Source: an uncultured Candidatus Saccharibacteria bacterium
GTDB taxonomy: Bacteria; Patescibacteriota; Dojkabacteria; JAOAGR01
Reading direction: 5' to 3'
DNA: 64,000 nucleotides
Assembly (NCBI GenBank): GCA_964503755.1
Contig: CAZDBO010000001.1
Location: forward strand, 92,285-156,284
In this document: one piece after another, positions 3,609 to 30,539 of the stretch
How the letters are laid out: each line of letters begins with the position of its first letter
Position numbering within the stretch: position 1 is the stretch's first letter
Program-made: the position numbers and the translations under genes
The notes under the pieces: generated by a model
Databases searched by the model: none
Seen by the model: the letters and a program-made list of their open reading frames with translations, nothing else
What the model was told of the DNA's origin: nothing

Positions 3609-3617
3609 TTTAATTTA

Positions 3618-14009: not shown

Positions 14010-15194
14010 ATGGCAACATTTCAAAGAACAAAACCACACGTAAATGTGGGTACAATAGGTCACGTAGACCACGGAAAAACTACATTGACAGCTGCAATTC
14101 TGGCAGTTTTGGCACGAGCTGGTTATTCAGCAGAAAATTTAGGAGTCGACCAAATAGATAAAGCCCCAGAAGAAAAAGCTAGAGGTATTACTATTAACGC
14201 AACCCACGTAGAATACGAAACTGCTAATAGGCACTATGCACATGTTGATTGTCCGGGACATGCTGATTACATAAAAAACATGATCACAGGTGCTGCTCAG
14301 ATGGATGGTGCTATCTTGGTAGTTGCAGCAACTGACGGTCCAATGCCTCAAACAAGAGAACATATCCTTTTAGCAAGGCAAGTTGGTGTTCCAAGAATTG
14401 TTGTATTCTTAAACAAATGCGATATGGTAGATGATCCAGAAATGATTGATCTTGTTGAAGAAGAGGTTACAGAATTGCTTAAGAAATATGGGTATAATTC
14501 TGAAGAAACAAGATTTGTACGGGGTTCGGCTCTAAAAGCTCTTGAAGAGACAACAATCGGTGAATGGTCACAAAAAATCCTTGAGCTCATGGAAGCGGTC
14601 GATGCCGTTATTCCAACTCCAGAAAGAGCTGTTGATCAACCTTTTTTGATGCCTATTGAGGATGTATTTCAAATACAAGGTCGGGGAACTGTAGTAACTG
14701 GACGTATTGAAAGAGGAGTTGTAAAGGTTGGTGACGCTGTAGAGCTTATCGGTCTTGGTAAGGATAATAAATCTGTTGTAACAGGAGTTGAGATGTTTAG
14801 AAAACAATTAGATGAGGGAGTTGCAGGCGATAATGTAGGAGTACTTTTGAGAGGTATTGAAAAAGATCACGTGATGAGAGGGATGGTTCTTGCAAAACCA
14901 GGTAGCATCACTCCTCACAAAAAATTTGTAGCTGAAGTTTATGTATTAAAGAAAGAAGAAGGTGGAAGACATACAGCGTTTATAACTGGTTATCGACCAC
15001 AGTTCTATATTAGAACAACTGATGTTACAGGAGAAGTCAAATTGGTAAATTCTGAAATGGCAATGCCTGGTGACAATGTAACTATGGAGATAACATTGAT
15101 CGAGCCTGTGGCTATGGAACAAGGGATGAGATTTGCTATTCGTGAAGGCGGAAAGACGGTTGGTGCTGGTATAGTAAACAAAATTATTGAATAA
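14010..15194 (+). CDS. tuf: elongation factor Tu
   Basis: 394 aa. [22 protein letters not shown] GTPase motifs. Confidence 0.97.
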
Positions 15195-15196
15195 TA

Positions 15197-15511
15197 ATGC
15201 AGATACTTCGTATAAAACTTAAGGCTTACGATCCTGGATTGATTGAATCTGCTTGTAAAAAAATTTCTGAAACTGTGATAAGGACAGGAGCAAAGGTTAG
15301 GGGGCCTGTACCTCTGCCAACCAGAATTAAGAGGTGGACAGTAATCAGGTCTCCTTTTGTAGATAAAAGATCACAGGAAGCTTTCGAGCAAAGAATTTCT
15401 TCTAGATTGATAGATATAATTGATTCTAATTCAAAAACCGTATCAAGCTTGCAAAGTCTTGTTTTACCGACAGGAGTATCTGTAGATATAAAAGTGATAA
15501 ATTCAAATTAA
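15197..15511 (+). CDS. rpsJ: 30S ribosomal protein S10
   Basis: 104 aa. IRIKLKAYD...PLPTRIKRWTVIRSPFVDKRSQE. Confidence 0.95.
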   Translation: MQILRIKLKAYDPGLIESACKKISETVIRTGAKVRGPVPLPTRIKRWTVIRSPFVDKRSQEAFEQRISSRLIDIIDSNSKTVSSLQSLVLPTGVSVDIKVINSN

Positions 15512-15524
15512 TTTAACAATTCTT

Positions 15525-16070
15525 ATGTACATCGGGATTAAAAAAGGAATGACGCAAGTATTTGATGAAAAAGGCAATGTTGTACCCGTCACTATAATTG
15601 ATGTTTCTGCGAAGGTTTATCAAGGATTAAAAAACTCTGGATTGTTTTTAGGGATAGGTAAGAAAAAGCATTCAAAAAAAACTGAAAAGGGTATATTTGG
15701 TGATCAAGTGCCCCAATATTACATACGGATAAAAAATGAAAGTGACGCTTGTATCCCTGAAGTAAATTCTACTGTAAAGATAGCTGCAAAATCAAAGGGT
15801 AGGGGGTTTATGGGAGTTGTAAAGTTGTGGGGATTTGATGGAGGACCAAAAACTCACGGACAGAGTAACAAACATAGATCACCTGGATCCATAGGAACAG
15901 GCACTACTTTTGGAAGGGTTTTACCTGGCCTCAAGATGGCTAAAAAAGCTGGTAACGAGACAGTTACTATACGCAGTGTTAAAGTAATTGATTACGACAA
16001 AGAAAATGATTTGTTGTTAGTAAAAGGATCTGTTCCGGGTTCCTATGGTACACTAGTTAAAATAATCTAA
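15525..16070 (+). CDS. rplC: 50S ribosomal protein L3
   Basis: 181 aa. GIKKGMTQVFDEKGNVVPVTII. Confidence 0.93.
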   Translation: MYIGIKKGMTQVFDEKGNVVPVTIIDVSAKVYQGLKNSGLFLGIGKKKHSKKTEKGIFGDQVPQYYIRIKNESDACIPEVNSTVKIAAKSKGRGFMGVVKLWGFDGGPKTHGQSNKHRSPGSIGTGTTFGRVLPGLKMAKKAGNETVTIRSVKVIDYDKENDLLLVKGSVPGSYGTLVKII

Positions 16071-16078
16071 TAAATTTT

Positions 16079-16651
16079 ATGGAAATCAAAATAATGACAA
16101 TTGATAATGAGCAGGTTGATAGTCTATCTTTTGATAACGGTGATGTTGATGTAGATTATCTTTTATCAAAATATGTAAGGGTGCATTCTATTAATTCTGC
16201 TCAATACACTAAAAGTACTAAGGGGGTTTCTGATGTAAAAGGTCATTCTAAAAAGCCCTATAGGCAGAAAGGTACGGGTTATGCTAGACAAGGTTCTGCA
16301 AAAACACCACATCATAGAGGAGGTGGAGTAGCACATGGACCCAAGCCTACGCAAAGGTCGGCAAGACTAAATAAAAAAGAAAGAGAAATATTGAGAAAAT
16401 ATATGCTATACTCTTTTTTTTCTAATGATAGAGTATATATAAATGATAAAGGTGATATTGATAAAAATTTTGTCTCAAAGTTTAGAAAAATTGTTTATTT
16501 GATTAATCAAGAGCCGCCTCTGTCGTATAAAAAATTTCCAAATATTACTTTTTCTGATACCAATTCTTTATCACCTTTACTAATTAGTACTTCAGATGTT
16601 ATTATTGTCGACAAATCTAGCTTAGAGGAATTGAAAAAAATGTTAAGTTGA
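16079..16651 (+). CDS. rplD: 50S ribosomal protein L4
   Basis: 190 aa. KPYRQKGTGYARQGS motif. Confidence 0.9.
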   Translation: MEIKIMTIDNEQVDSLSFDNGDVDVDYLLSKYVRVHSINSAQYTKSTKGVSDVKGHSKKPYRQKGTGYARQGSAKTPHHRGGGVAHGPKPTQRSARLNKKEREILRKYMLYSFFSNDRVYINDKGDIDKNFVSKFRKIVYLINQEPPLSYKKFPNITFSDTNSLSPLLISTSDVIIVDKSSLEELKKMLS

Positions 16652-16956
16652 TTATGAAACAAGTAATTATAAAACCTTTAATTACAGAAAAAACATATAA
16701 GCTTTATAAAGATAATAGAGTCGTTACATTTATTGTTGATAGAAAAGCAACCAAAAAAAATATTTCTTATTATTTTAATAAAATATATGGTATTAATCCA
16801 ACGAGTGTTCGTGTAGTGTCATCAAGAAAGGAAAATACAGGTCTTGTAACAAAAAGTGGAAGATTAATTAGTAGAACGCATAATAGAATTAAATATAAAA
16901 AAGCATATATAAATATAGGAGAAAATAAATTAGAAATTTTTGAAAATATTGGATAA
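16648..16956 (+). CDS. rplW: 50S ribosomal protein L23
   Basis: 102 aa. IIKPLITEKT...VTFIVDRKATK. Confidence 0.9.
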   Translation: MIMKQVIIKPLITEKTYKLYKDNRVVTFIVDRKATKKNISYYFNKIYGINPTSVRVVSSRKENTGLVTKSGRLISRTHNRIKYKKAYINIGENKLEIFENIG

Positions 16957-16958
16957 GT

Positions 16959-17798
16959 ATGGCATTAAAAGTATTAAAACCTACGACGCCCGGACAACGA
17001 GGAACTGTTTTAGTGGATAGGACAGTATTAACTGCTGACAAGCCGTTCAAGTCCTTAACTGTAACGATAAAAGGATCTACTGGAAGGAGTAGAGGAAAAA
17101 TTACTACTAGACACAAAGGAGGAAGGTTAATCCGTAAATATAGAATTATTGATTTTAAACGGTCAGTAAGAAATGTGTATGGTACCATAACTACTATAGA
17201 ATACGATCCGTTTAGAAATGCTTTTATATCTCTAGTTGTTTATGATAATGGACAGAAACGCTATGTAATAACACCACATAATGTAAGTATGGGACATAGA
17301 ATAATAGCCGCAGAGAATGCTAGCCCTGATATAGGCAATTCCATGCCTTTAAAAAATATACCGGTAGGTCAACAGATTTATAATATTGAACTTACACCAA
17401 ATAGTAAAGGAACAATTGTTCGCTCCGCTGGTACAAGTGCAGTACTTCTCGGTTTTGATGGAGATTATGCACAAGTTCGATTGCCTTCAAAAGAGGTAAG
17501 GCTTTTTAAAAAAGATTGTTATGCAACTATAGGATCTGTTTCCAATCCGGATGCGAAAAACGAAGTTTTAGGAAAAGCAGGAAGAAACAGGTGGCGTGGT
17601 GTAAGACCAACAGTAAGAGGTATGGTGATGCCTCCAAACGCACATCCTCATGGTGGTGGTGAAGCTAAAGGTGTTATTGGACATATACCTAGAGACCCTT
17701 GGGGAAATGTTAGGGGTAAACTTACAAGGCGAAAGCGAAACAGATTTTCTAAATTTATTATTACTAACAGAAAGGGAAGAAAGTATATTAAAAAATAA
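16959..17798 (+). CDS. rplB: 50S ribosomal protein L2
   Basis: 279 aa. Conserved GRNxxGxITxRHKGGG-like motif and C-terminal PHGGGEAKG. Confidence 0.95.
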
Positions 17799-17800
17799 TT

Positions 17801-18109
17801 ATGTCAAGATCGCTTAAAAAAGGACCATATGTAGATCAAAAACTGCTTAAAAAAGTTTTGATTGCAAAGCAAAATGGAGATAAAAAGCCTATAAAAACTT
17901 GGGCACGTAGAAGTGATATATCTCCAGATTTTATTGGCATGACTATTGCTGTACATGATGGTAGAAAACATGTGCCTATTTTTATTACAGAGGATATGGT
18001 TGGGCATAAATTAGGAGAATTTGTTCCAACACGTACATTTAGGGGGCATGCTTCCAAGGGTAAAGTTGCAAAAACACTTGGAAGTGTTGGTAGGGTAAAT
18101 AAAGATTAA
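17801..18109 (+). CDS. rpsS: 30S ribosomal protein S19
   Basis: 102 aa. SLKKGPYVD...[29 protein letters not shown]. Confidence 0.95.
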
Positions 18110-18111
18110 GT

Positions 18112-18435
18112 ATGAAAGCATCTGTAAAAAAAATAAATTATACGCCGCGAAAACTTAGATTAGTAGTTGCCTTGGTTAAAGGTATGAATGTAGATTATGC
18201 TATGCAGTATTTGTCGAATGTAAACAAAAAAGGTGCTCCTATTATTTTAAAGACACTAAAATCCGCTGTAGCCAATGCAAATATTGATCCTAAAAATTTG
18301 ATGATAGATAAAATATATGTAAATGAATCATCTTTAAAGTTAAAACGAATTTTGTATGCTAATAGAGGTCGTGGTAAAATCCGAACCAAAAGATACTGTG
18401 ACTTACATATTGAATTAAAAACGAATAATGGCTAA
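18112..18435 (+). CDS. rplV: 50S ribosomal protein L22
   Basis: 107 aa. Position in operon; RKLRLVVALVKGMNVDYAMQYL. Confidence 0.9.
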   Translation: MKASVKKINYTPRKLRLVVALVKGMNVDYAMQYLSNVNKKGAPIILKTLKSAVANANIDPKNLMIDKIYVNESSLKLKRILYANRGRGKIRTKRYCDLHIELKTNNG

Positions 18436-19051
18436 AAAAGTTATACCACAAATATATAGAATTGGACTTAATGAAAGGCATTTATCTTCTTGGTTTGCTA
18501 CTGGATCAAAGTTTGCAAAATATCTACATGATGATTTGAAAATTAGAAAGATAATAAGAGATTATGCTTATATAGCGGGTATAGATAAAATTTTTATTTC
18601 ACGCAATGATGGTAATGTTACGGTGGATTTATACGTTGGAAGGCCTGGCTTAGCAATTGGTAAAAATGGTGGGGGTATTGAACAAATGGAAAAAGAAATT
18701 AAATCCAAAGTAGGAGTTGATGCTAAGATTAATGTGTATGAAGTTAAACAACCATATTTATCAGCGAATATTGTTGCTCAGAATATAGTAGATTCTTTGA
18801 AGAAAGGCGTTCCTGTCAAAGTTGCTATGAAACAACAATTAGATAGGATTGAAGCGTCTGGGGCTAAAGGTGCTCGAATTATGGTAAAAGGACTTGGTCC
18901 TATCAAACAAGCACGAGCTGAAATATTAGAAATAAAGGGTGGTAGATTGCCGTTAACTACGTTGAGGGCAAAGATTGATTATGCGTTCCAACAAGTTCTA
19001 GTAGATAGAATGTATGGGGTGAAAGTTTGGATTTATAAAGGAGAAATATAA
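18428..19051 (+). CDS. rpsC: 30S ribosomal protein S3
   Basis: 207 aa. KH domain. IxQIYRIGLNE; GRPGLAIGKNGGGIEQ. Confidence 0.93.
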   Translation: MAKKVIPQIYRIGLNERHLSSWFATGSKFAKYLHDDLKIRKIIRDYAYIAGIDKIFISRNDGNVTVDLYVGRPGLAIGKNGGGIEQMEKEIKSKVGVDAKINVYEVKQPYLSANIVAQNIVDSLKKGVPVKVAMKQQLDRIEASGAKGARIMVKGLGPIKQARAEILEIKGGRLPLTTLRAKIDYAFQQVLVDRMYGVKVWIYKGEI

Positions 19052-19057
19052 ATTATT

Positions 19058-19465
19058 ATGATTGCACCAAGAAAAACAAAATATAGAGTTAGTCATTTAA
19101 GAAAACTTAAAGGGGATTCTACATCTGGAGTAAATATAGAATATGGTGATATGGCTTTGGTTGCTTTGGAAAATGAGTACATCACTCCAAATCAACTTGA
19201 AGCAGTAAGAAGAGTAATTGCCAATACTACAAAAAGAGCAGCAAAAGTATGGATAAGAGTTTTCCCAGATCAACCTATTACAGCAAAAGGAGCAGGTACT
19301 CGCATGGGTAGTGGAAAAGGTCCAGTCAAGGCCTATGTGGCACCAGTAAAGGCTGGTAGAGTTCTTGTTGAGATAGGTGGAGTTAGTAGCGAATTAGGTA
19401 TGAAAGCGCTTACGCTTGCACAGTCTAAGTTGGGAGTAAAAACTAAAATTCTAGTAAAGTCATAA
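19058..19465 (+). CDS. rplP: 50S ribosomal protein L16
   Basis: 135 aa. PRKTKYRVSH...RMGSGKG. Confidence 0.93.
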   Translation: MIAPRKTKYRVSHLRKLKGDSTSGVNIEYGDMALVALENEYITPNQLEAVRRVIANTTKRAAKVWIRVFPDQPITAKGAGTRMGSGKGPVKAYVAPVKAGRVLVEIGGVSSELGMKALTLAQSKLGVKTKILVKS

Positions 19466-19468
19466 ACT

Positions 19469-19675
19469 ATGTATAAGGTAAACGAGTTAAGAAAGATGCC
19501 AAAAGATGAACTACTCTCTCTTTTAAATTCGGAGAGAGCGCATCTTATGAAGTTGCGTATACAATTAAAATTTGGAGCCACTAATGCTGATAATGTAAAT
19601 AATTATAGGAATAAACGCAAATTGATTGCTAGAATAAAAACTGTTCTAAAAGAATTAAAATTGATTAATAAGTAG
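19469..19675 (+). CDS. rpmC: 50S ribosomal protein L29
   Basis: 68 aa, helical, position in operon. Confidence 0.85.
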   Translation: MYKVNELRKMPKDELLSLLNSERAHLMKLRIQLKFGATNADNVNNYRNKRKLIARIKTVLKELKLINK

Positions 19676-19677
19676 AT

Positions 19678-19923
19678 ATGAATAACGAAAAAAAAAGAAA
19701 ACGATTTGAATGTGTAGTTGTTTCAAATAAAATGACTAAAGCTGTTGTTGTAAGAGTAGAACGTAAAGTACCTCATCCTAAATATAAAAAGATAATCACC
19801 AAATATACTAAATTGTATGCAAGAAATGAAATAGATGGTGTAAAAGTAGGTGATGTTGTTGTGGTAGAGGAATGTAGACCTTTGACAAAATTAATTAGGT
19901 TTAAAGTAATACACAAAAAGTAA
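19678..19923 (+). CDS. rpsQ: 30S ribosomal protein S17
   Basis: 81 aa. [18 protein letters not shown]...HPKYKK. Confidence 0.9.
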
Positions 19924-19930
19924 AGAGTCT

Positions 19931-20299
19931 ATGGTTCAATTAAATACAATATTAAAAGTTGCTGATAATTCTGGAGCAAAATACTTTAAAGTGATAACTG
20001 TATTAGGAGGGTCAAATAAAAAGTTTGGTAAAATTGGAGATAGGGTATCAGGAGTTGTAAAGGGTGCAAATCCAGATGGTAATGTAAAAGATCATCAAAA
20101 ATGTCATGCGGTGATAGTTCGTACTAAGAAAGAATTCAGAAGAAAAGATGGTACTTACATAAAATTTGATGATAATGCAGTTGTACTTATTAACAAGGCG
20201 GGTGAGCCTATAGGAACGGCTGTTTTTGGACCAGTTGCTAGGGAAATAAAAGATAAAGGATACAATAAGATTGCTAGTTTAGCACCAGAATTATTATAA
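19931..20299 (+). CDS. rplN: 50S ribosomal protein L14
   Basis: 122 aa. [17 protein letters not shown]. Confidence 0.95.
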
Positions 20300-20309
20300 G
20301 AATGTAGCT

Positions 20310-20600
20310 ATGGCAGCAAAAATTAAAAAAGGTGATTCTGTAAAAGTTATGAGTGGAGCTTATAAAGGTAAAGTTGGTATAGTCAGTCGTGTCGATCGAA
20401 AAAACAATCTTGTATACATTGATGGTATAAATGTGAAAAAAAGAGCGGTTAAAAAGGGAGAGAATTCTAATGACAATTTTGTATATATAGTACATCCTAT
20501 ACATTATTCAAATGTAAAAAAAATTGAACCATTATCTGATACTCACAATTCAGAAAAAAGTTTAAACGGTGGTGATTTCTCAAACCGCGAGACTGAATAA
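20310..20600 (+). CDS. rplX: 50S ribosomal protein L24
   Basis: 96 aa. KOW motif IKKGDSVKVMSGAYKGKVG. Confidence 0.92.
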   Translation: MAAKIKKGDSVKVMSGAYKGKVGIVSRVDRKNNLVYIDGINVKKRAVKKGENSNDNFVYIVHPIHYSNVKKIEPLSDTHNSEKSLNGGDFSNRETE

Positions 20601-21406
20601 TGAAATCTTTAAATAATTCTATTTCTCTTTCGGAAATCGATTCTTTGATAGATTCCAATTGCGTTATTGTTGGTAATAATGCTATTCATGATAATCTTTT
20701 CGTATTTCTGAAATATATATATTTTGTTGTTTTGTCAGATAATATCAAGTCACCTAAGGTAAAAAATTCCATTGATTTCTTGAAGAAAAATAATGTATTC
20801 ATAATTTATTCATCGAAACTAGTAAAGTATATAAATACAAAACTGCATTTACAAAAAAAAAATGTTAAGTTTTTTTTGTTTATAGATTCAAAGCTAAGAA
20901 ATATTGTTAGTCTAAATTATTTCATTGAGGATTCTGTTAAATTAAAATATAGTACTGTTGTTGCTTTTCCCAGTTTGGATTACGAATACAATGTTGGATC
21001 AATGATTAGAACATCATATGCCTTCGGGGTCGATGCTATTTTAATACCTAAAAATTTCAAAAATTTTTACTCACCAGCTGTAACAAAGATATCAACAGGA
21101 TATAATTACCAAATAAGGGTTATACAAGATAAATTTGTTGATTCATTGCGTAGACTTAAAGATGCCGGTTTTTGTTTATACTGTTTCGATTCTTTAGGTG
21201 GTGAAAATATATCAAAAGTAGTGTATAATCCAAAAGCTTGTTTTGTATTTGGCGATGAAGCCAAAGGAATTGAAAAATATATAATGAGAGAATGTGATTA
21301 TACTATTGCCATACCGATGCAAAATGGTGTAGAATCACTCAATGTATCGGTAAGCTTGGGAATAGCACTGTATGACAGAAAATATAAGCAGGATATATGT
21401 CTTTAA
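20600..21406 (+). CDS. SPOUT-class RNA 2'-O-methyltransferase (TrmH/SpoU family) with ~120-aa N-terminal extension
   Basis: All three SpoU motifs are present: YNVGSMIRTSYAFGVD (motif 1), FVFGDEAKGI (motif 2), IAIPMQNGVESLNVSVSLGIALYD (motif 3). The start overlaps the rplX stop by 1 nt (TAATGA). The stop overlaps the rplE start by 10 nt. Confidence 0.8.
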   Translation: MKSLNNSISLSEIDSLIDSNCVIVGNNAIHDNLFVFLKYIYFVVLSDNIKSPKVKNSIDFLKKNNVFIIYSSKLVKYINTKLHLQKKNVKFFLFIDSKLRNIVSLNYFIEDSVKLKYSTVVAFPSLDYEYNVGSMIRTSYAFGVDAILIPKNFKNFYSPAVTKISTGYNYQIRVIQDKFVDSLRRLKDAGFCLYCFDSLGGENISKVVYNPKACFVFGDEAKGIEKYIMRECDYTIAIPMQNGVESLNVSVSLGIALYDRKYKQDICL

Positions 21407-21936
21407 AGGAAAAATATAAAAATCAAATAATAAAAGAATTAATGGACGAATTGGGTATTTCTAATCCCATGCGTGTTCCTCGACTTGTTAAGATAACTGT
21501 TAACTCGGGTGTAGGTAAGGCTCTAGAAGATTCGAGACTTATAGATATTATGGTTGAAGATATGACTTCATTTACGGGGCAGAAGGCTTTGCCAACTTTA
21601 GCAAAAAAAGATATATCAGGTTTCGGTCGACTTAAGAAAGGCGATAAAATTGGGGTTTTTGTTACGTTAAGAGGTAATAAAATGTGGAACTTTTTAGAGA
21701 AATTAATAAATGTTGTATTGCCTGGAATACGAAACTTCAAGGGACTATCTCCTAAATCCTTTGATGGAAAAGGAAATTATTCTTTTGGAGTCAAACAGCA
21801 CACTGTGTTTCCAGAATCTAATCAAAACCGACTAGAAAAGGCTATGGGGGTACAGATAAACATAACTACTAGTGCTCAATCTGATAAAGAAGCATTGATG
21901 TTACTTAAAAAAATTGGATTACCAATAATGAATTAA
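21397..21936 (+). CDS. rplE: 50S ribosomal protein L5
   Basis: 179 aa. [13 protein letters not shown]...[18 protein letters not shown]. Confidence 0.95.
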
Positions 21937-21943
21937 AACTTTT

Positions 21944-22138
21944 ATGGCAAGTAAATCAAAAGTAGTAAAATATTTAAAACAGTTAAAAAAAACAAAATAT
22001 GCTGTAAGAATAAAAAGAAGGTGTGCTATATGTGGACGCCCTCGAGGTTATATGAGAGATTTTGATATGTGTAGAATTTGTTTTAGAATACATGCTAGAA
22101 ACGCGCTTATACCAGGAGTTAAAAAATCAAGTTGGTAA
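21944..22138 (+). CDS. rpsN: 30S ribosomal protein S14, type Z (zinc-binding)
   Basis: 64 aa. CAICGRPRG...CRICFR Cys4 zinc ribbon. Confidence 0.93.
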
Positions 22139-22140
22139 TT

Positions 22141-22545
22141 ATGAAAGATAATAATTATATGAAATCAACAAATGATATTGTAGCTGATACTTTAACTAGG
22201 ATTCGAAATGCAATTAAATCAAAAAAAGCTACAGTAATAGTACCTTTATCGAAATTAGTACTTGAGATATTGAAAGTAATGCACAACTATAAATTTATAG
22301 GTGATTATCAAGTTGTAGGTAAAAATGCTATAGAAGTAAGCTTGCTTGTTGACGGACAATATAAAATAAGTGAATTAGTTAGGGTTTCGAAACCTGGTTT
22401 GAGAGTTTACGTAAAATCAAAAGATATAAAACCAGTAAAATATGGTTATGGAATAGGAATATACTCTACATCGCAAGGTGTAGTATCACATGTAAAAGCT
22501 AAGAAAATGGGTATTGGTGGAGAATATATATGTTATATTTGGTAA
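22141..22545 (+). CDS. rpsH: 30S ribosomal protein S8
   Basis: DIVADTLTRIRNA motif. The track ORF begins at 22132 but the start is more likely 22141 or 22159. Confidence 0.9.
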   Translation: MKDNNYMKSTNDIVADTLTRIRNAIKSKKATVIVPLSKLVLEILKVMHNYKFIGDYQVVGKNAIEVSLLVDGQYKISELVRVSKPGLRVYVKSKDIKPVKYGYGIGIYSTSQGVVSHVKAKKMGIGGEYICYIW

Positions 22546-22560
22546 TAAATTAAATAACTA

Positions 22561-23094
22561 TTGGTTATGGCAAAAAGTTTTGAAAAAACAATTGAGATTC
22601 CTTCGCAAGTTAAAGTATCTTTAGATTCAAGAACACTTGTTTTTGTAGGGCCAAAAGGGACTAATAAACTCGATGTTTTAAGAGAAGAAATTGTTGTTGA
22701 ATTGTCAGAAAGTGAAATTAAAATAGAACAAACAAATCAAAAAAGAGATTATTTAAACTTATATTATAGATTAATTCTAAATTGCATACAAGGAGTTACT
22801 GAAGGATTTACCAAATCGCTTGAATTGGTGGGTGTAGGTTATAAGGCTTCTATGAATGGACAAGATATAGTTCTTAATGTAGGATATTCTCATCCTGTAG
22901 TCATTAAGAAAATGAATGGTATAGAATTTTCGATAGTTGATAATGCAATAAATGTTAGTGGTATTGATAAAGTCAGGGTTGGGGATGTGGCTGCAAAGAT
23001 AAGGTCTGTAAGACCTCCAGAACCATACAAAGGAAAAGGTATTCGGTATAAAGGTGAACAGGTATATAGAAAAGAATATAAATCATTGAAATAG
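22561..23094 (+). CDS. rplF: 50S ribosomal protein L6
   Basis: 177 aa, position and two-domain L6 pattern. Confidence 0.9.
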   Translation: MVMAKSFEKTIEIPSQVKVSLDSRTLVFVGPKGTNKLDVLREEIVVELSESEIKIEQTNQKRDYLNLYYRLILNCIQGVTEGFTKSLELVGVGYKASMNGQDIVLNVGYSHPVVIKKMNGIEFSIVDNAINVSGIDKVRVGDVAAKIRSVRPPEPYKGKGIRYKGEQVYRKEYKSLK

Positions 23095-23100
23095 TAGTTT

Positions 23101-23457
23101 ATGTCCAATATCAGATTACAAAAGAGAGTTAAAAGACATCTAAGAGTACGAAAAAGAGTCTTTGGTACCAATGAACGTCCTCGAATAAGTGTTTATAGAA
23201 GTAACAAAAATTTTCAGGTGCAATTAGTTGTTGACAGCAAGGTTGGTGCATCAACTACATTATTTGGTTTGACTACAAGCATATTGCGTGAAAAAACATC
23301 GAAGAAAGAAAAAATCGATCAACTAGCAAAGATTTTTGTTGAAAAAGCAAAAGAGAAAAAGATAGAAAACGTTGTATTTGATAAAGGAGGATATGCATAT
23401 AAGGGGAATGTTAAGTTTTTAGCTGATAAATTAAGAGAATACGGATTGAATTTTTAA
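23101..23457 (+). CDS. rplR: 50S ribosomal protein L18
   Basis: 118 aa. PRISVYRSNKNFQVQLV...FDKGGYAYKGNVKFLADKLREYGLNF. Confidence 0.92.
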   Translation: MSNIRLQKRVKRHLRVRKRVFGTNERPRISVYRSNKNFQVQLVVDSKVGASTTLFGLTTSILREKTSKKEKIDQLAKIFVEKAKEKKIENVVFDKGGYAYKGNVKFLADKLREYGLNF

Positions 23458-23463
23458 TAAATT

Positions 23464-23922
23464 ATGGAAACAAACAACAAACAACAAAATAGTACAGAAT
23501 TTGAGTCTTATGTACTTTATACTAATAGAGTGACTAAGGTTGTAAAGGGAGGGAAGCGATTAAAATTTCAAGCGTTGGTGGTTGTTGGTAATAGAAAAAA
23601 TAAAGTAGGGTTGGGCTTTGCTAAGGGAGTCGATCCTAAGTCAGCTATAGAGAAGGCAACAAGAAAGGCCAAGAAAAACTTGAAACACGTTGTGGTGCGC
23701 GGCACGACGGTTCCTTATGATGTTATGAGTAAGTTTAAAGCAGCACGTATTTTTGTAAAGCCCGCAAAGCCGGGTACGGGTCTTATTGCAAGCAAGTCTA
23801 TTAGACCTGTATTAGAATTGGGTGGGATACAAGATGTTTATTCAAAAGTTTATGGTACTAAAAACAAGATAGCTAATGCCTATTGTATTTTTAATATTAT
23901 TACGAATTTTAAAGCTAAATAA
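23464..23922 (+). CDS. rpsE: 30S ribosomal protein S5
   Basis: 152 aa. VTKVVKGGKRLKFQALVVVGN. Confidence 0.95.
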   Translation: METNNKQQNSTEFESYVLYTNRVTKVVKGGKRLKFQALVVVGNRKNKVGLGFAKGVDPKSAIEKATRKAKKNLKHVVVRGTTVPYDVMSKFKAARIFVKPAKPGTGLIASKSIRPVLELGGIQDVYSKVYGTKNKIANAYCIFNIITNFKAK

Positions 23923-23932
23923 TTAGTAGGTT

Positions 23933-24361
23933 ATGTTGAATAATTTAATAAAAATAAAACAGAAGTCAAAAAAGAGAATTGGTAGAGGTGGAGGTTCCGG
24001 GAAAGGTTTTCATACAGCCACACGAGGCCAAAAAGGCCAGAAATCTAGGGCAGGTTATTTTAGAAGAAAAGATTTTCAAGGTGGACAAAAGCCATTAAGC
24101 AATAAACTTCCAAGAATAAGAAAATCATTTACTGTAGTTAAAAAACAAAAGCCAAAGACTATAAAAATTGATTTCTTTTATAACATAGGTATTACAGAAA
24201 TTAATCCTGAAGTAGTTTCTAAATATTTTCCAACTAAGAACTACATAATTACTGGTTCGTCTAGTTCAGACATAGAATATTCTAAATTTGTATTATCAGG
24301 CGTAAAATTAACAAATAAATTAAAAGAACAAATAATAGCATCTGGTGGTAAGGTAGAATAA
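23933..24361 (+). CDS. rplO: 50S ribosomal protein L15
   Basis: 142 aa. RIGRGGGSGKGFHTATRGQKGQKSR. Directly follows rpsE with no rpmD between them. Confidence 0.92.
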   Translation: MLNNLIKIKQKSKKRIGRGGGSGKGFHTATRGQKGQKSRAGYFRRKDFQGGQKPLSNKLPRIRKSFTVVKKQKPKTIKIDFFYNIGITEINPEVVSKYFPTKNYIITGSSSSDIEYSKFVLSGVKLTNKLKEQIIASGGKVE

Positions 24362-24377
24362 GTGCTATATTTCGTAT

Positions 24378-26015
24378 ATGAAATTTATTGAATTATTAAA
24401 GTCTTTTTTATCAAATAAAGACATTTTGGTACGTTTGTCTATTACTTTTATAATTATAGTAATATATAGATTTTTATCTAAAATACCTGTTCCCGGCATA
24501 GAAAGAGATGCATTGGCGACTTTTTTTTCAAATCAACAAGGAGAAACCATTGGGCTTTTTAATGTAGCAAATATCCTTTCTGGGGATTCTTTATCAAATT
24601 TTTCTATTATTTCATTTGGAGTTGTGGCATATGTTAGTGCATCTATAATAATGCAATTACTCGGTGTGATTATTCCTAAAATAGAAGAAATCCGAAAAAT
24701 GGGTGCTGTTGGAACTAAAATACTGGATCAGTGGACACGTATACTAACAGTGCCTTTAGTTTGTCTTCAGGGGGTAGGAATGTATCTCGCACTAAGTTCA
24801 AGTAACAACCCTTTAGGAAGACCAATATTGGATCCAATTGAATTTAACACCTTGCGTGTTATTAGTACTATTGCAGTTTTAGTAGCTGGTACGATGCTTT
24901 TGATGTGGCTTGCTGAGATTTTGACAGAGTCTGGAATCAGTGGTGCTAAGAGAGGAGGTGGATTTAGTGTTATTATCACGGCTGGTATATTATCATCATT
25001 ACCTGCGGCTATCGTGAATGATTTTTCAAACATACAACTCAGTCGTTTTTTACAAAATATGTGGATTGCATTATTGATTCAATTCGTAATCTTTTTAATT
25101 TTATTAATCCTGTTTGTTGGATATGTGAAATTAGTAAAGTATGTATTTAATTTAAAGACAAAAGCATATAAGATTATTGGTGGGATGTTTTTGTCTTTTG
25201 TTTTGTTGTCAATACCTATTATTATTACGTTTGTAGTTAGATCACAAGATCCGACTTCTCTTTATATAAAGGATTTTATACAATTGAATTTGGCTAGATT
25301 AAATGATTTTGAGGTTAAGTTCGGATTTTTTATTGGTATACTTTTACAAGTAATAGGAATAATAGTTTATTTTAATGAATCTGTTAGAAAAATACCCATT
25401 AGGTTTGTATCACAAATCACGGTACGAACGAATTATGTTGCAGAAAAAAGTTCTTTTATTCCTGTTAAATTTTTCATCATAGGTATTATTCCAACAATAT
25501 TTTCTATGTCTTTTTTAGCTATGCCAGAATTCGTCTATCGATTTTTTGGAAATTCTATAAATGACTGGAATCCAGCTGTTGGTGAATTTGTAAGATATAT
25601 GTCGCAAGGTTGGTTTAATCAATTTAATAGTGAGTATTATTACATAGTTTCTTTTATGTTAACAGTATTTTTTTCTCTGTTTTATGTTAATGCTGTGATA
25701 AAGCCCGAAGATATAGCAGAAAACTTATCAAATATGAACTCATTTATACCAGGTTTAAGACCGGGTAAAGACTCTCTCGAATATATATCAAGAATTTTTA
25801 ACTATATGGCGTTTTGGGGCGGTATTATTTTGGCATTTTCTACTGTAGCTCCATTCTTGTTAGGTGTTTATTCTCAAACAACCATATCCTCTGTTGAAAG
25901 ACTTTTAGCTGGTGGTACAAGCCTTCTTATTTTGGTACCAACATTTTTGTCCATAAAGGATCAAGTTCTGTCAATGATACTTACTAAAAACTACGATAAA
26001 TATCGAGAAATATAA
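24378..26015 (+). CDS. secY: preprotein translocase subunit SecY (extended, 545 aa)
   Basis: Position after rplO. 10 TM pattern. About 100 aa longer than typical SecY. Confidence 0.85.
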   Translation: MKFIELLKSFLSNKDILVRLSITFIIIVIYRFLSKIPVPGIERDALATFFSNQQGETIGLFNVANILSGDSLSNFSIISFGVVAYVSASIIMQLLGVIIPKIEEIRKMGAVGTKILDQWTRILTVPLVCLQGVGMYLALSSSNNPLGRPILDPIEFNTLRVISTIAVLVAGTMLLMWLAEILTESGISGAKRGGGFSVIITAGILSSLPAAIVNDFSNIQLSRFLQNMWIALLIQFVIFLILLILFVGYVKLVKYVFNLKTKAYKIIGGMFLSFVLLSIPIIITFVVRSQDPTSLYIKDFIQLNLARLNDFEVKFGFFIGILLQVIGIIVYFNESVRKIPIRFVSQITVRTNYVAEKSSFIPVKFFIIGIIPTIFSMSFLAMPEFVYRFFGNSINDWNPAVGEFVRYMSQGWFNQFNSEYYYIVSFMLTVFFSLFYVNAVIKPEDIAENLSNMNSFIPGLRPGKDSLEYISRIFNYMAFWGGIILAFSTVAPFLLGVYSQTTISSVERLLAGGTSLLILVPTFLSIKDQVLSMILTKNYDKYREI

Positions 26016-26761
26016 TGCCAAAAACAAATTCTGAGATCGAATATATACGAGAGTCATCCAAAATTTTAGCATTGATTTTCAGTGAATTAGAAAAAATAAT
26101 TTCGCCTGGTATAAGTACTTTAGATATAGATAAGTATGCCAGTTTTTTGTGTAAGAAATATAAGGTAAAGCCTGCATTTAAAGGTTATAAAGGATACAGA
26201 TATACTATATGTGCCAATGTTAATGATGTTGTTGTTCATGGTATTCCGAATAGTCGTAAGTTGAAAAATGCCGATATAATAGGACTAGATATGGGAGTTA
26301 TATATCACGGTTATTACTCTGATATGTCAAAAACTATTTGTATAGGAGATGTAAATGATGATATAAAGAGCTTTGTTGACAAAACTTATAAATCTATGAT
26401 GCAGGGTATTTCTGTTTTGAGAGATGGAATTAGAGTAGGAGATATTAGTTATGCTATGCGAGATGACCTTTATGATAACCAGTTTATTCTTATGGAGGAT
26501 TTTGTGGGACACGGTATAGGAAGAAATCTTCATGAAAATCCAAACATACCTGGACATGGTTTAAATAAAGGTGAAGGTGAAGAGATAAAGAAAAATATGG
26601 TATTGGCAGTTGAATCAATTTCGGTTATGTCGGATAGTAATGAATATTTTATAGAGGATGATCAATGGACGGTTAGAACAAAAAACGGAGCTCTGTCAGC
26701 GCTCTTCGAACATACAGTTTTGGTAACTAAAAATGGTTACGAAATTCTTACTTTATCGTGA
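26015..26761 (+). CDS. map: methionine aminopeptidase type I
   Basis: 248 aa pita-bread fold. DxxD/H/E/E metal ligands (GHGIGRNLHE, VLAVESI). No adk between secY and map. Confidence 0.9.
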   Translation: MPKTNSEIEYIRESSKILALIFSELEKIISPGISTLDIDKYASFLCKKYKVKPAFKGYKGYRYTICANVNDVVVHGIPNSRKLKNADIIGLDMGVIYHGYYSDMSKTICIGDVNDDIKSFVDKTYKSMMQGISVLRDGIRVGDISYAMRDDLYDNQFILMEDFVGHGIGRNLHENPNIPGHGLNKGEGEEIKKNMVLAVESISVMSDSNEYFIEDDQWTVRTKNGALSALFEHTVLVTKNGYEILTLS

Positions 26762-26823
26762 TATATATTGCATTTTATCCATTCTATGATTATAATGCCC
26801 TAGATGTTTACAAATTTGAAGTT

Positions 26824-27051
26824 ATGAGTAATAATACGAAAGTTACTGTAGAAGGCAAAGTAATAGAATGTTTAAGGGGAACTGAATTTATGGTAAGAAT
26901 AGATTTGGGAGATAATATGTATGAAGACATAGTAGGTTATATTTGTGGTAATTTGAGGAAAAAGTATATAAAAGTTGATGTTGGTGATAAGGTTATGATA
27001 GAAATAAGTAAATACGATTTAAATCGTGGTAGAATAATTAAAAAATTATGA
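26824..27051 (+). CDS. infA: translation initiation factor IF-1
   Basis: S1-like OB fold. [21 protein letters not shown]...[18 protein letters not shown]. The track ORF starts at 26758; the Met at 26824 gives a typical 75-aa IF-1. Confidence 0.88.
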
Positions 27052-27209
27052 AAGTACAAACAAGTGTAAGAAAAAGATGTTCAGACTGCTATATTGTTAA
27101 AAGAGAAGGTGTGTTGCGTGTATACTGTAAAAAAAATCCTCGACATAAACAAAAACAGGGGAAAAAGAAAATGGGACAACTTAAAAAAACTAGAAGATCT
27201 AAGAAATAA
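27048..27209 (+). CDS. rpmJ: 50S ribosomal protein L36 with Lys/Arg-rich C-terminal tail
   Basis: Missing from the ORF track (<60 aa). Hand translation gives [38 protein letters not shown] (zinc-ribbon L36 core) plus about 15 extra basic residues. The ATG overlaps the infA TGA. Confidence 0.8.
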
Positions 27210-27607
27210 TGGCTACTAACACAAAAATATTAGGAGTAAATTTAAATCCCAAAAAATATGTACTTTATGCTTTACAAGATATTTATGGGATAGGAATGTC
27301 TCTTTCAAAGAAGATACTAAATTCGGTTGACTTAGATCCATACGTAAAAGTGGCTGACATGTCAGATGAGGATTTGAACAAAGTAAGATCGGAAATTGAA
27401 TCAGGAAAATATCTGTTAGAAGGTGATTTAAGGCAAAAGGTTTTTAAGGATATTGCTAGATTAAAGGTTATAAAGTGTTATAGAGGTATAAGGCATAAGT
27501 TGGGACTTCCTGTACGTGGTCAAAATACAAGACGTAATGCACGTACTAGAAAAGGGAAAGCTAAAATTCCAGTTGGTGGATTAAAGAAAGTGTTGCAGAA
27601 AAAATAG
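27209..27607 (+). CDS. rpsM: 30S ribosomal protein S13
   Basis: 132 aa. ILGVNLNPKKYVLYALQDIYGIG. Confidence 0.95.
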   Translation: MATNTKILGVNLNPKKYVLYALQDIYGIGMSLSKKILNSVDLDPYVKVADMSDEDLNKVRSEIESGKYLLEGDLRQKVFKDIARLKVIKCYRGIRHKLGLPVRGQNTRRNARTRKGKAKIPVGGLKKVLQKK

Positions 27608-27625
27608 CGTACAATATCTTTATTT

Positions 27626-28018
27626 ATGGCTAAGAAAAAAGAAAAAAAATCTACAACAAAAATGCCAAGCGTAAAATCTGGTAGGATATATATTTATAGT
27701 AATTATAACAATTGCTTACTTACTTTTACTGATAATAATGGTAATGTAATTGCTTGGTCTTCTCCGGGCAAAGTAGGATTTAAGGGAGCTAGAAAATCTA
27801 CACCTTATGCCAGTCAAAAAGCGGCAGCAGAATTAAATAATATGCTTAAAAGAATTGGGGTTGAAGAGGTTGATATTTATTTAAGAGGGCCCGGCATTCC
27901 GAGTAAACACCTTGTTATTAGAGAATTAGCATCGGGAGGATACAGAATCAATGCATTTGTTGATAACAATAGATTTCCCCATGGTGGAGTAACTCCAAGA
28001 AAAAAACCTAGAAAATAA
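27626..28018 (+). CDS. rpsK: 30S ribosomal protein S11
   Basis: 130 aa. GRIYIYSNYNNCLLTFTDNNGNVIAWSSPG. Confidence 0.95.
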   Translation: MAKKKEKKSTTKMPSVKSGRIYIYSNYNNCLLTFTDNNGNVIAWSSPGKVGFKGARKSTPYASQKAAAELNNMLKRIGVEEVDIYLRGPGIPSKHLVIRELASGGYRINAFVDNNRFPHGGVTPRKKPRK

Positions 28019-28021
28019 ACT

Positions 28022-28639
28022 ATGTCGAGATATACAGGACCAAAAACAAAAATCTGTCGCAGAGAGAGAACGGATGTTTATCCTAGAGTGGGTGAACTTG
28101 TGCAAGTGCCGAAAAGAATGAAAAAGAGGACTGCGCCTGGAGAGCATCCTATGTATCCTAGATTAAGTCAGTTTGGAATTCAATTTAGAGAGAAACAAAA
28201 GGTCAAGAGAATGTATGGAATGACAGAAAAGCAATTTAAAAGGTTTTTTGAAATGGCACTACGAAAAGAAGGAAATACTGGATTATTATTTTTGCAGTTA
28301 TTAGAAATGCGTTTAGATAATGTTGTTTTTAGAGCAGGATTAGCAAAAACTAGAAATCAGGCAAGGCAGTTTGTGAACCATGGGCATATTTTAGTTAATG
28401 GTAAAAGGGTGGATATACCATCTTATATAGTGAAAATTGGTGATGAACTTGAGTTGAAGGTTAATATTACAAATTCAGATTGGTATACCAGTTGGTATAA
28501 TAGTATATCTAGTTATATGCCACCATCATGGATCCAAAGAATGGATGCTTATAAAGTAAAAATTTTGAGAACTCCTGATAGACAAGATATTGAATTAACA
28601 ATAAATGAACAAAATATAGTCGAATATTATTCAAGATAA
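28022..28639 (+). CDS. rpsD: 30S ribosomal protein S4
   Basis: 205 aa. SRYTGPKTKICRRE N-terminus and S4 domain. Confidence 0.93.
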   Translation: MSRYTGPKTKICRRERTDVYPRVGELVQVPKRMKKRTAPGEHPMYPRLSQFGIQFREKQKVKRMYGMTEKQFKRFFEMALRKEGNTGLLFLQLLEMRLDNVVFRAGLAKTRNQARQFVNHGHILVNGKRVDIPSYIVKIGDELELKVNITNSDWYTSWYNSISSYMPPSWIQRMDAYKVKILRTPDRQDIELTINEQNIVEYYSR

Positions 28640-28646
28640 AAGTAAG

Positions 28647-29324
28647 ATGTCAAACTTAACAATACAAAAAAAAGAAATAGAAAAAAATAAATATTCTTAT
28701 ATTATTGGTCCTTTCCCTAAAACATGGGGAAATACGTTTGCTGCACCTATTCGTAGATCATTATTAAATAGTATACCAGGTGCTGCTATAACAAAAGTAC
28801 GTATAAAAGCTGTTGATCATGAATTTACAGGTTATGATGGAATGAAAGAAGATGTTTTGTACTTTGTATTAAATCTTCAAAAAGTAGTTATCAGAATGGA
28901 CTCTAGTGATAGTGAAAAGTTAAAACTAAAAGTAAAGGGACCAGGAGAGATAAAAGCGGGCGATATAGATTGTCCGTCAAATGTTGTGATAGTTAATCAA
29001 GACTTGGTTATTGCTACATTAACAGCTGATGTTGTATTAGAAGCAGAAATGACAGTAGAAAAGGGCGAAGGTTTCAGGTTGGCTGATGATGATATACGTA
29101 ACGTGGAACCTGGTGTCATACCGGTTAGTGCCAATTTTAATCCAGTACTTAGAGTGGGGGTTTCTGTAGAAGCGGATCGTGTAGGTCAGAGTACTGATTA
29201 TGAAAAGATTGTCTTAGAGGTAGAGACTAATGGAGCTATACACCCAGATGATGCACTGCGTGAAGCTTTGTCAAATCTTGATTCAAAACTTCAAAATATA
29301 ATAAATCAGGCAAATCAATTATAA
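28647..29324 (+). CDS. rpoA: DNA-directed RNA polymerase alpha subunit, N-terminal domain only (225 aa)
   Basis: Aligns to the alpha-NTD (GNTFAAPIRRSLLNSIPGAAITKVRIKAVDHEF). Stops at 29324 and rplQ starts at 29332, so no alpha-CTD is encoded here. Confidence 0.85.
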   Translation: MSNLTIQKKEIEKNKYSYIIGPFPKTWGNTFAAPIRRSLLNSIPGAAITKVRIKAVDHEFTGYDGMKEDVLYFVLNLQKVVIRMDSSDSEKLKLKVKGPGEIKAGDIDCPSNVVIVNQDLVIATLTADVVLEAEMTVEKGEGFRLADDDIRNVEPGVIPVSANFNPVLRVGVSVEADRVGQSTDYEKIVLEVETNGAIHPDDALREALSNLDSKLQNIINQANQL

Positions 29325-29331
29325 GATTGTT

Positions 29332-29667
29332 ATGTATAAAAAAAGGAGTGTTGTAAAATTAGGCAGGCCTAGAAAAGAGAGAAAACTCATGGTAAAGTCG
29401 CTTCTTAAGGATTTGATAGTACATGGTTATATTCGCACAACAAAGATGCGGGCTTGGGTCGTAGCTAAGGAGTTTGATGCTCTCATGAATGATGTTGTAA
29501 ATAACAATTTAAGATCAGCCTATCTAAAATTAAATGATGAAAAAATGCTTGAGAAACTAAAGCAAATGAATATTAATGATAAAAAAACAGGATTTAGTAG
29601 AATTATTAAAATTGGTAATCGTAGGGGAGACGGTGCAGAATTAGTCTTATTAGAAATTATAAAGTAA
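29332..29667 (+). CDS. rplQ: 50S ribosomal protein L17
   Basis: 111 aa. GRPRKERKLMVKSLLKDLIVHGYIRTT. Confidence 0.92.
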   Translation: MYKKRSVVKLGRPRKERKLMVKSLLKDLIVHGYIRTTKMRAWVVAKEFDALMNDVVNNNLRSAYLKLNDEKMLEKLKQMNINDKKTGFSRIIKIGNRRGDGAELVLLEIIK

Positions 29668-29678
29668 TTAAATGAATT

Positions 29679-30110
29679 ATGAAAAAAACAACATCGCTAA
29701 AAAAATCTGATGTAAGTAAAAATTGGCTTCTTGTTGATGCTTCCGATCAAATACTTGGCAGGCTTGCTTCTAAGATTTCTCTTATTTTGCAAGGCAAGAA
29801 TAAGCCAAACTATGCACCAAATTTGGATTGTGGTGATTATGTAGTTGTGATTAATGCAGAAAAGATAAAAGTAACAGGTGATAAACTGAATTCAAAAATA
29901 TATCGAAAGCATTCCGGATATATTGGTGGATTAAAAGAAAAGACATTAGAACAATTAATGACTAAAAATCCTACTGTCGTTTTACGTAATGCAGTATATA
30001 GGATGTTACCCAAAAATAGAATGCGAGATGTGTATATATCTAAATTAAAAATTTATGCTGGATCAGAACATCCGCATGTTGCACAAAAACCAGAAATGAT
30101 AGAGATATAA
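29679..30110 (+). CDS. rplM: 50S ribosomal protein L13
   Basis: 143 aa. WLLVDASDQILGRLASKISLILQGK. Confidence 0.95.
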   Translation: MKKTTSLKKSDVSKNWLLVDASDQILGRLASKISLILQGKNKPNYAPNLDCGDYVVVINAEKIKVTGDKLNSKIYRKHSGYIGGLKEKTLEQLMTKNPTVVLRNAVYRMLPKNRMRDVYISKLKIYAGSEHPHVAQKPEMIEI

Positions 30111-30122
30111 TAAAACATCGTT

Positions 30123-30539
30123 ATGAAAGCAATTGAAAATACAAACGAAAAAAAACACATTCAGTACGCAGTAGGTAGAAGAAAAAGAGCTTCCGCTCGT
30201 GTAAGAATGTACGAAGGAGAAGGAAAGGTAACTATCAATGGAAAAAGTTTAGAGAAATTGGGAGTATCAAAGATAAAAATAAAAGAGGTTTTTGATGTTA
30301 TTTTTAATACGGAATTATTCAAAAATTATGATTTTTCTGTAAAAGTAGTAGGAGGTGGAGTATATGCTCAGTTAGAAGCTGCAAGGCATGGTATAGCAAG
30401 ATGTATAGCAAAACTTAGTGATGATGCTAAACAAACAATGAGAAAATTAGGTCTTTTGACAAGAGATCCTAGAGAAAAGGAAAGAAAAAAAGTTTACCTT
30501 GTAAGAGCTCGCAAAGCTCCACAATATTCGAAGCGTTAG
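30123..30539 (+). CDS. rpsI: 30S ribosomal protein S9
   Basis: 138 aa. C-terminal DPREKERKKVYLVRARKAPQYSKR. Confidence 0.95.
   Translation: MKAIENTNEKKHIQYAVGRRKRASARVRMYEGEGKVTINGKSLEKLGVSKIKIKEVFDVIFNTELFKNYDFSVKVVGGGVYAQLEAARHGIARCIAKLSDDAKQTMRKLGLLTRDPREKERKKVYLVRARKAPQYSKR

Follow-up and report, generated by a model that had tools for sequence, protein, structure and literature searches.

A SpoU methyltransferase gene, probably of RlmB type, held between rplX and rplE in the spc operon of Candidatus Dojkabacteria

Among described systems, the one most like the gene reported here is E. coli RlmB (YjfH, Gm2251; Protein Data Bank (PDB) entry 1gz0; family model TIGR00186), which consists of an L30e-like N-terminal domain, a linker and a SpoU knot domain with three sequence motifs. 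The same fold and domain order are found in Tsr/NshR (Am1067), AviRb (Um2479), RlmP/YsgA (Gm2553), RlmR (Um2552) and T. thermophilus RrmA. E. coli rlmB adjoins rnr and not ribosomal protein (r-protein) genes. In Bacilli, an ancestral cysS-rnc-rlmB-orf1-sigH unit lies directly upstream of the secE/rplK r-protein cluster, and rsmC lies in the rpoBC operon (PMC8046335). The Bacilli cluster is thus a precedent for an rRNA methyltransferase gene linked to an r-protein operon supercluster, although there rlmB belongs to a flanking operon at the cluster edge. Here we describe an RlmB-like gene that lies instead between the core spc cistrons rplX and rplE, with overlapping codons, in a 64,000-nucleotide stretch of contig CAZDBO010000001.1 (hereafter the window; positions are counted from its first nucleotide). 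The locus is composed as follows.

20310..20600, + strand: rplX (uL24), 96 amino acids (aa), intact; Pfam KOW match at E 3.7e-11
20598..20602, + strand: junction TAATG of the rplX stop and the methyltransferase start, 1 nt common to both
20600..21406, + strand: gene for the RlmB-like SPOUT RNA 2'-O-methyltransferase, 268 aa
21397..21406, + strand: overlap of the methyltransferase 3' end with the rplE start, 10 nt; the methyltransferase open reading frame (ORF) ends with TAA at 21404-21406
21397..21936, + strand: rplE (uL5), 179 aa, intact; Pfam Ribosomal_L5 and Ribosomal_L5_C matches

An earlier reading of this DNA (the original prediction) had placed a SpoU ORF between rplX and rplE with overlaps of 1 and 10 nt, and its coordinates, overlaps and three SpoU motifs were all correct when the sequence was read again. 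The ORF begins at the earliest start codon available in its own frame, and the last A of the rplX TAA (20598-20600) is the first base of its ATG at 20600 (junction sequence GAATAATGAAA). The encoded protein divides into the following parts.

20600..20659, + strand: clade-specific N-terminal extension, residues 1-20, with a helix predicted at 10-18 in AlphaFold2 models
20660..20887, + strand: divergent L7Ae/L30e-like (SpoU_sub_bind-type) RNA-binding domain, residues about 21-96, delimited from hhalign, PF08032 and the domain model
20954..21379, + strand: SpoU catalytic (alpha/beta knot-type) domain, residues about 119-260, with PF00588 over residues 120-258
20990..21010, + strand: SpoU motif 1, N131-x-G133-x3-R137 (NVGSMIR, with the catalytic Arg), residues 131-137
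21251..21268, + strand: SpoU motif 2, G218-D-E220-A-K-G223 (GDEAKG), residues 218-223
21311..21349, + strand: SpoU motif 3, IPMQNGVESLNVS, residues 238-250, from the translation

The assignment of this protein to the SpoU/TrmH class of SPOUT methyltransferases, as first proposed, is upheld by a profile hidden Markov model search, in which Pfam SpoU_methylase (PF00588) places the C-terminal part in the SPOUT class (score 113.3 bits, cut-off 29.7, E 1.3e-32; model positions 3-142 of 142 aligned to residues 120-258). The same model matches all 37 members of the clade to which the protein belongs. All three motifs are present and conserved in the alignment of these 37 sequences: N131, G133 and R137 of motif 1 are invariant, as are G218 and G223 of motif 2 and P239, E245 and S246 of motif 3, while E220 and N248 are at least 90% conserved. 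The invariance or near-invariance of these residues argues that catalysis has been retained, and the enzyme, judged from its sequence, looks catalytically competent. The placement is further supported by structure models. The catalytic domain of the AlphaFold2 model superposes on the C-terminal domain of RlmB (1gz0_E) over 162 columns with a root-mean-square deviation (rmsd) of 1.8 A and a template modelling (TM) score of 0.89 in Foldseek, and the model superposes also on TARBP1, TrmL and CspR, which identifies the SpoU catalytic fold by superposition rather than by tracing of the knot.

The N-terminal region of about 120 aa, which had been thought to match nothing, is in fact a divergent L7Ae/L30e-like domain homologous to that of RlmB. 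When the clade is aligned with 14 canonical RlmB sequences in hhalign, columns 23-267 fall on columns 9-250 with a probability of 100% and E 4e-45. For the full-length AlphaFold2 model (predicted local distance difference test (pLDDT) score 81), the top Foldseek match in the PDB is E. coli RlmB 1gz0, aligned over 246 columns; other two-domain SpoU rRNA methyltransferases follow at E 1e-13 to 1e-16. A structure prediction of residues 1-118 alone (pLDDT 75.5) likewise returned the L30e/L7Ae fold. Its matches comprise solely L30e, L7Ae, YlxQ, eS12, Snu13 and Gadd45-fold proteins along with the RlmB N-terminal domain (1gz0_A; 78 columns, rmsd 2.2 A), a uniform list whose E-values are individually marginal. 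PF08032 is weakly detected in 19 of the 37 clade members (best E 4e-4), the window protein itself falling among those in which it is undetected. The profile alignment together with the two AlphaFold2 models thus rules out a novel N-terminal domain and recovers the RlmB architecture, an L30e-like domain followed by a SpoU domain. The sole clade-specific stretch is residues 1-20, which lie outside the region that aligns with canonical RlmB; within it, Ile17 is invariant in a 20-sequence alignment of the N-terminal region and reaches at least 90% conservation in that of the 37 clade members.

Within the SpoU class, RlmB is the best-fitting subfamily. TIGR00186 is the top NCBIfam model for the window protein (109.9 bits, E 1.3e-31; model positions 5-236 of 240 aligned to residues 23-260) and ranks first in all 37 clade members, with a best E of 1.7e-44. 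It scores about 50 bits above the NshR/TsnR, YfiF, TrmH, TrmL and TrmJ models in the window protein. E. coli RlmB is therefore at once the top structural match, the source of the top family model and alignable over the full length by profile, with the same domains and motifs in the same order. Differences between the two lie in the overall identity, which is about 19-23%, in the replacement of the N-domain 'HQGV' of canonical RlmB by 'DSxGV', and in the extra N-terminal helix of about 20 aa.

The window protein is a member of a discrete SpoU clade, as delimited from sequence. A word-indexed profile search separated 36 clusters, all with E no worse than 1e-82, from canonical RlmB, which came next at 1e-29. 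An exhaustive HMMER search of 1.84 billion representatives added intermediates to this picture and gave 196-431 bits for the clade and at most 141 bits for all other sequences. In genome records the carriers are named Candidatus Dojkabacteria (WS6, Patescibacteria), one record being labelled Saccharibacteria by its submitter. The host of the window is itself a Candidatus Dojkabacteria and so a Patescibacterium, as the original prediction had it.

The original prediction had raised the possibility of the same insertion in related Patescibacteria, and the order uL24-SpoU-uL5 was found at all 16 distinct loci read, including those of the most divergent members of the clade (P0139, P0227, P0228 and P0230); both flanks were seen in 14 of them. 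In the gene models as called, the genes meeting at these junctions overlap by up to 41 nt or stand up to 43 nt apart. The genes of the next-best relatives (25-28% identity, or 137 bits) lie outside the spc operon. We also approached the locus in reverse, with uL5 as query, chosen without reference to SpoU. Two such queries led to three of the 16 loci (L023, L024 and L025), each carrying the SpoU insert. Eight uL5 matches had at least 55% identity: four are apparently on contigs already known to carry SpoU, two that were looked up blind carry the insert, and P0374 and P0380 stand outside the count. A uL5 of 51% identity comes from an outgroup operon (L026) in which uL24 directly abuts uL5 with no insert between them. 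The arrangement is thus lineage-specific, as had been suggested, being conserved across Dojkabacteria-like genomes and missing from the single outgroup operon that was read.

Some of these loci show other departures from the usual gene order. On contig Ga0105249_10211866 (L009:117-545, + strand), an ORF of 142 aa without a Pfam match lies between uL14 and uL24; this Dojkabacteria-like spc operon, which has the methyltransferase too, contains two non-ribosomal insertions. In the two most divergent carriers, those of P0228 and P0230 (L019:3975-5358 and L021:7449-8759), the spc operon ends after uS5, with ksgA (RrnaAD) coming after it in the opposite orientation, together with grpE in L021. The genes for uL15 and secY must be located elsewhere; the spc operon of this lineage is broken, yet the uL24-SpoU-uL5 unit has been kept. 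A Dojkabacteria contig of 916,890 bp (L014:16483-17516, + strand) carries ORFs of 96, 99 and 127 aa without Pfam matches between map and infA.

Neighbour-joining trees built from six concatenated r-proteins and from the methyltransferase give largely the same groupings. Compared with the orthologue of locus L003, which is 82% identical (the uL24 proteins of the two loci are 78% identical), the methyltransferase gene has a ratio of nonsynonymous to synonymous substitution rates (dN/dS) of 0.157, with 0.10 in the C-terminal catalytic half and 0.21 in the N-terminal half; these values are rough, as synonymous sites are near saturation. The fixed position, the agreement of the trees and the dN/dS ratio together indicate that the insertion is ancient, vertically inherited and under purifying selection. 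A recent horizontal transfer finds no support, since the G+C content of the gene is similar to that of its neighbours and the gene and r-protein trees are congruent.

The surrounding operon bears on how the gene may be expressed.

14010..30539, + strand: same-strand string of tuf, S10, spc and alpha genes, then rplM-rpsI; 32 genes, uninterrupted

Gaps in this string are at most 18 nt, save one of 157 nt before rpsM. The canonical spc order rplN-rplX-rplE-rpsN-rpsH-rplF-rplR-rpsE-(rpmD)-rplO-secY is kept with two departures: the methyltransferase gene interrupts it between rplX and rplE, and rpmD (uL30) is missing from the string; the latter is typical for Candidate Phyla Radiation (CPR) bacteria. 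Seven of the 31 junctions from tuf to rpsI overlap, by 1-10 nt, so overlaps are not special to the methyltransferase gene. The original prediction went further and deduced from the overlaps that the enzyme is expressed stoichiometrically with the r-proteins; this does not follow from them, and protein ratios cannot be had from sequence. What the locus does suggest is a common transcript: with neither intergenic space nor a promoter or terminator on either side, the gene would be on the same mRNA as the r-protein genes. A promoter and terminator of its own were looked for and rejected: promoter-like sites in the scan were at background level (94 found against 85.5 +/- 10.3 expected), and the terminator scan found no site on the + strand near the gene. 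We likewise rejected an r-protein leader or a structured RNA at the start of rplE, as an Rfam scan of the window (G+C 30.7%) yields three tRNAs only. The E. coli S8 operator at rplE is not known outside Gammaproteobacteria.

No Shine-Dalgarno-like sequence is seen upstream of the methyltransferase ATG (duplex with the anti-Shine-Dalgarno sequence of -3.0 kcal/mol), and an AGGA stands 3 nt upstream of the rplE ATG at 21397 (-5.3 kcal/mol). Most r-protein genes of the + strand string at 14010-30539 are without such a sequence, with duplex energies mostly weaker than -3.5 kcal/mol, and initiation in this cluster may proceed largely through coupling or by Shine-Dalgarno-independent mechanisms. Because most genes of the operon lack the sequence, its strength is uninformative on expression. 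For the methyltransferase gene, we infer that co-transcription and coupling by termination and reinitiation are plausible.

Taken with the family assignment, these observations lead us to favour, with somewhat better than even confidence, an RlmB-type 23S rRNA methyltransferase, probably forming Gm2251, whose gene was relocated to the spc operon by an ancestor of the lineage and is co-transcribed there. The 23S target, most likely G2251, is proposed from what is known of the family, in which RlmB fits best, and we hold specificity for G2251 in particular to be modestly favoured. In outline, an rlmB-type gene would have moved between rplX and rplE in the ancestor of Dojkabacteria (WS6) and been inherited vertically in that place since. 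The methyltransferase would be translated from the shared mRNA, probably by termination and reinitiation from rplX at TAATG, and the rplE start would be reached by ribosomes within the last codons of the methyltransferase. If co-transcription and coupling with rplX and rplE hold, synthesis of the enzyme would thus be tied to ribosome production. The L30e-like N-terminal domain would position the rRNA, and the C-terminal knot domain would, by analogy with the family, bind S-adenosylmethionine and act as a homodimer using the Arg of motif 1. The product would be Gm2251 in the P-loop (helix 80) of 23S rRNA. RlmB is one of just four rRNA-modification enzymes kept by all Mollicutes (PMC4014445), and this fits a reduced genome that keeps exactly RlmB activity.

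Other explanations have to be weighed against an RlmB-type enzyme. An assembly or annotation artefact, be it contig chimerism or a frameshift in rplX or rplE, has the unusual gene order as its sole point in favour and is refuted by independent assemblies: the arrangement recurs in the 16 distinct loci across JGI, NCBI and Logan assemblies, and the gene is under purifying selection. The original prediction had itself named a frameshift of the neighbours as a possible flaw; as uL24 and uL5 are both full length with their Pfam domains, such an origin of the ORF is ruled out. More weight attaches to a paralogue of RlmB with another 23S target (G2553, U2552, A1067 or U2479), canonical RlmB being encoded elsewhere or lost, which we regard as possible though unlikely; a different rRNA target for the enzyme has, in general, a similarly minor claim. 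Several points tell against RlmB here. The window protein falls under the curated equivalog cut-off of 160.15 bits for TIGR00186, and its best phmmer match in the PDB is the thiostrepton-resistance A1067 methyltransferase Tsr (3gyq, 4e-14), slightly above RlmB 1gz0 (5e-11). The two-domain SpoU group that contains RlmB also includes RlmP (G2553), RlmR (U2552), AviRb (U2479) and the A1067 enzymes. The enzymes on which a paralogue would be modelled, namely RlmP/YsgA, RlmR and MRM3 for the A-loop, Tsr/NshR for A1067 in the GTPase centre and AviRb for U2479, have the same two-domain fold and are good structural matches, in the range of E-values given above, so the fold by itself does not reveal the target nucleotide. 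The clade is also sharply apart from canonical RlmB and evolves two to three times faster than the r-proteins (35-40% identity against 50-75%), which could reflect altered specificity. In addition, a second, canonical rlmB may lie outside the 64 kb searched; inside them there is no second SpoU domain in any frame, and among the matches listed (the whole of one table and the best 120 of another) no other SpoU match is attributable to long Dojkabacteria contigs. A paralogue is opposed by the margin of the RlmB model over NshR/TsnR in the window protein and by its first rank in every clade member. The scores on the NshR/TsnR models NF000477 (60 bits against a cut-off of 425) and NF000035 (48.5 against 500) are far below what those families require, a thiopeptide or orthosomycin biosynthesis context is absent, and a resistance gene would not be expected to remain fixed inside the spc operon throughout a class-level lineage.

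It is most improbable that the protein is a tRNA 2'-O-methyltransferase (TrmH Gm18 or related) instead of an rRNA enzyme. Some JGI records do call clade members 'tRNA G18 (ribose-2'-O)-methylase SpoU', and the catalytic domain is common to TrmH (E 2.7e-10). However, that name is a generic COG0566 label, the TrmH, TrmL and TrmJ models score at most 40 bits against 110 for RlmB, and the L30e-like N-terminal domain is shared with the best-matching two-domain SpoU enzymes, which, wherever a substrate has been assigned to them, methylate 23S rRNA. We give equally little credence to a protein that serves mainly as a structural factor in 50S assembly, or as a subunit associated with the ribosome, is produced at nearly r-protein levels and has methylation as a secondary or dispensable activity, like the SPOUT dimers on mitoribosomal assembly intermediates. 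The position in the middle of an r-protein operon with coupled junctions would suit such a role, and MRM3 and trypanosomal SPOUT proteins found on assembly intermediates match structurally (7oi6, 9hcd and 6yxx). Together with MRM1, these mitochondrial and trypanosomal proteins illustrate how SPOUT enzymes can be bound assembly factors in large-subunit maturation. They share with the window protein a SPOUT fold with N-terminal extensions, but are eukaryotic and organellar and have longer extensions. A further point in favour of an assembly factor, and one that also counts against the RlmB-type reading, is that both closest relatives, P0001 (91% identity) and P0002 (82%), have Ser for the motif-3 Asn at the position of residue 248 (nt 21341-21343), giving SLSVS in place of SLNVS; the window protein retains Asn. 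Speaking against it, Asn, Gly and the catalytic Arg of motif 1 and the residues of motifs 2 and 3 are invariant or nearly so across the 37 sequences, the catalytic half is under the stronger constraint, and sequence carries no report of expression level. A bolder version, in which the Dojkabacteria methyltransferase is an obligatory, operon-encoded component of 50S assembly that reaches near-r-protein levels through its coupling with uL24 and uL5 and acts on or stays bound to the nascent large subunit, is a long shot. If true, such a dedicated 50S assembly factor would perhaps compensate for r-proteins that CPR ribosomes lack, and would not be a dispensable, low-abundance modification enzyme.

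We also record several observations on other genes of the window. The branched-chain amino-acid pathway genes ilvD (dihydroxy-acid dehydratase) and ilvC (ketol-acid reductoisomerase) and one for an acetolactate-synthase-like thiamine pyrophosphate enzyme are found at 1839-4670 (- strand) and 11810-13528 (+ strand); the CPR group of the host is usually described as lacking amino-acid biosynthesis. A malic enzyme is apparently split over two adjacent ORFs on the - strand, the larger, upstream one (377-997) running from the last part of the N-terminal domain into the first part of the NAD-binding domain and the downstream one (31-324) holding a later part of the NAD-binding domain, possibly through a frameshift or as a pseudogene. 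At 50603-51190 (- strand), between genes for seryl- and asparaginyl/aspartyl-type tRNA synthetases, a 195-aa protein has weak matches to ThsB-TIR-like and nucleoside 2-deoxyribosyltransferase-like families. ORFs of 749, 454, 201 and 409 aa at 6419-8668 (+ strand), 10320-11684 (- strand) and 54320-56151 (- strand) have no Pfam match at E <= 0.001.

The enzyme is of an ordinary class and a well-understood family, and nothing here implies a new mechanism; the novelty lies in the spc operon, of which a conserved, lineage-defining and apparently undescribed variant is seen. The original prediction called the gene uncharacterised, and this stands in so far as the searchable full-text literature, including CPR papers and the first closed WS6 genome paper, yielded neither an experimental characterisation nor a description of the uL24-SpoU-uL5 arrangement. 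It does not stand for the gene as such, which is already in public databases under generic names; annotation pipelines are inconsistent on these, giving 'hypothetical protein', 'TrmH family RNA methyltransferase' or, at JGI, 'RlmB'. Few bacterial gene orders are as stable as the adjacency of rplX and rplE, and a non-ribosomal gene fixed there across a deep, class-level lineage is therefore useful. The uL24-SpoU-uL5 order is a clean, synapomorphy-like marker for Dojkabacteria and a sister group, and the locus offers a natural case of an rRNA-modification enzyme wired into the expression of an r-protein operon and a concrete handle on which rRNA modifications still matter in ultra-reduced CPR genomes.

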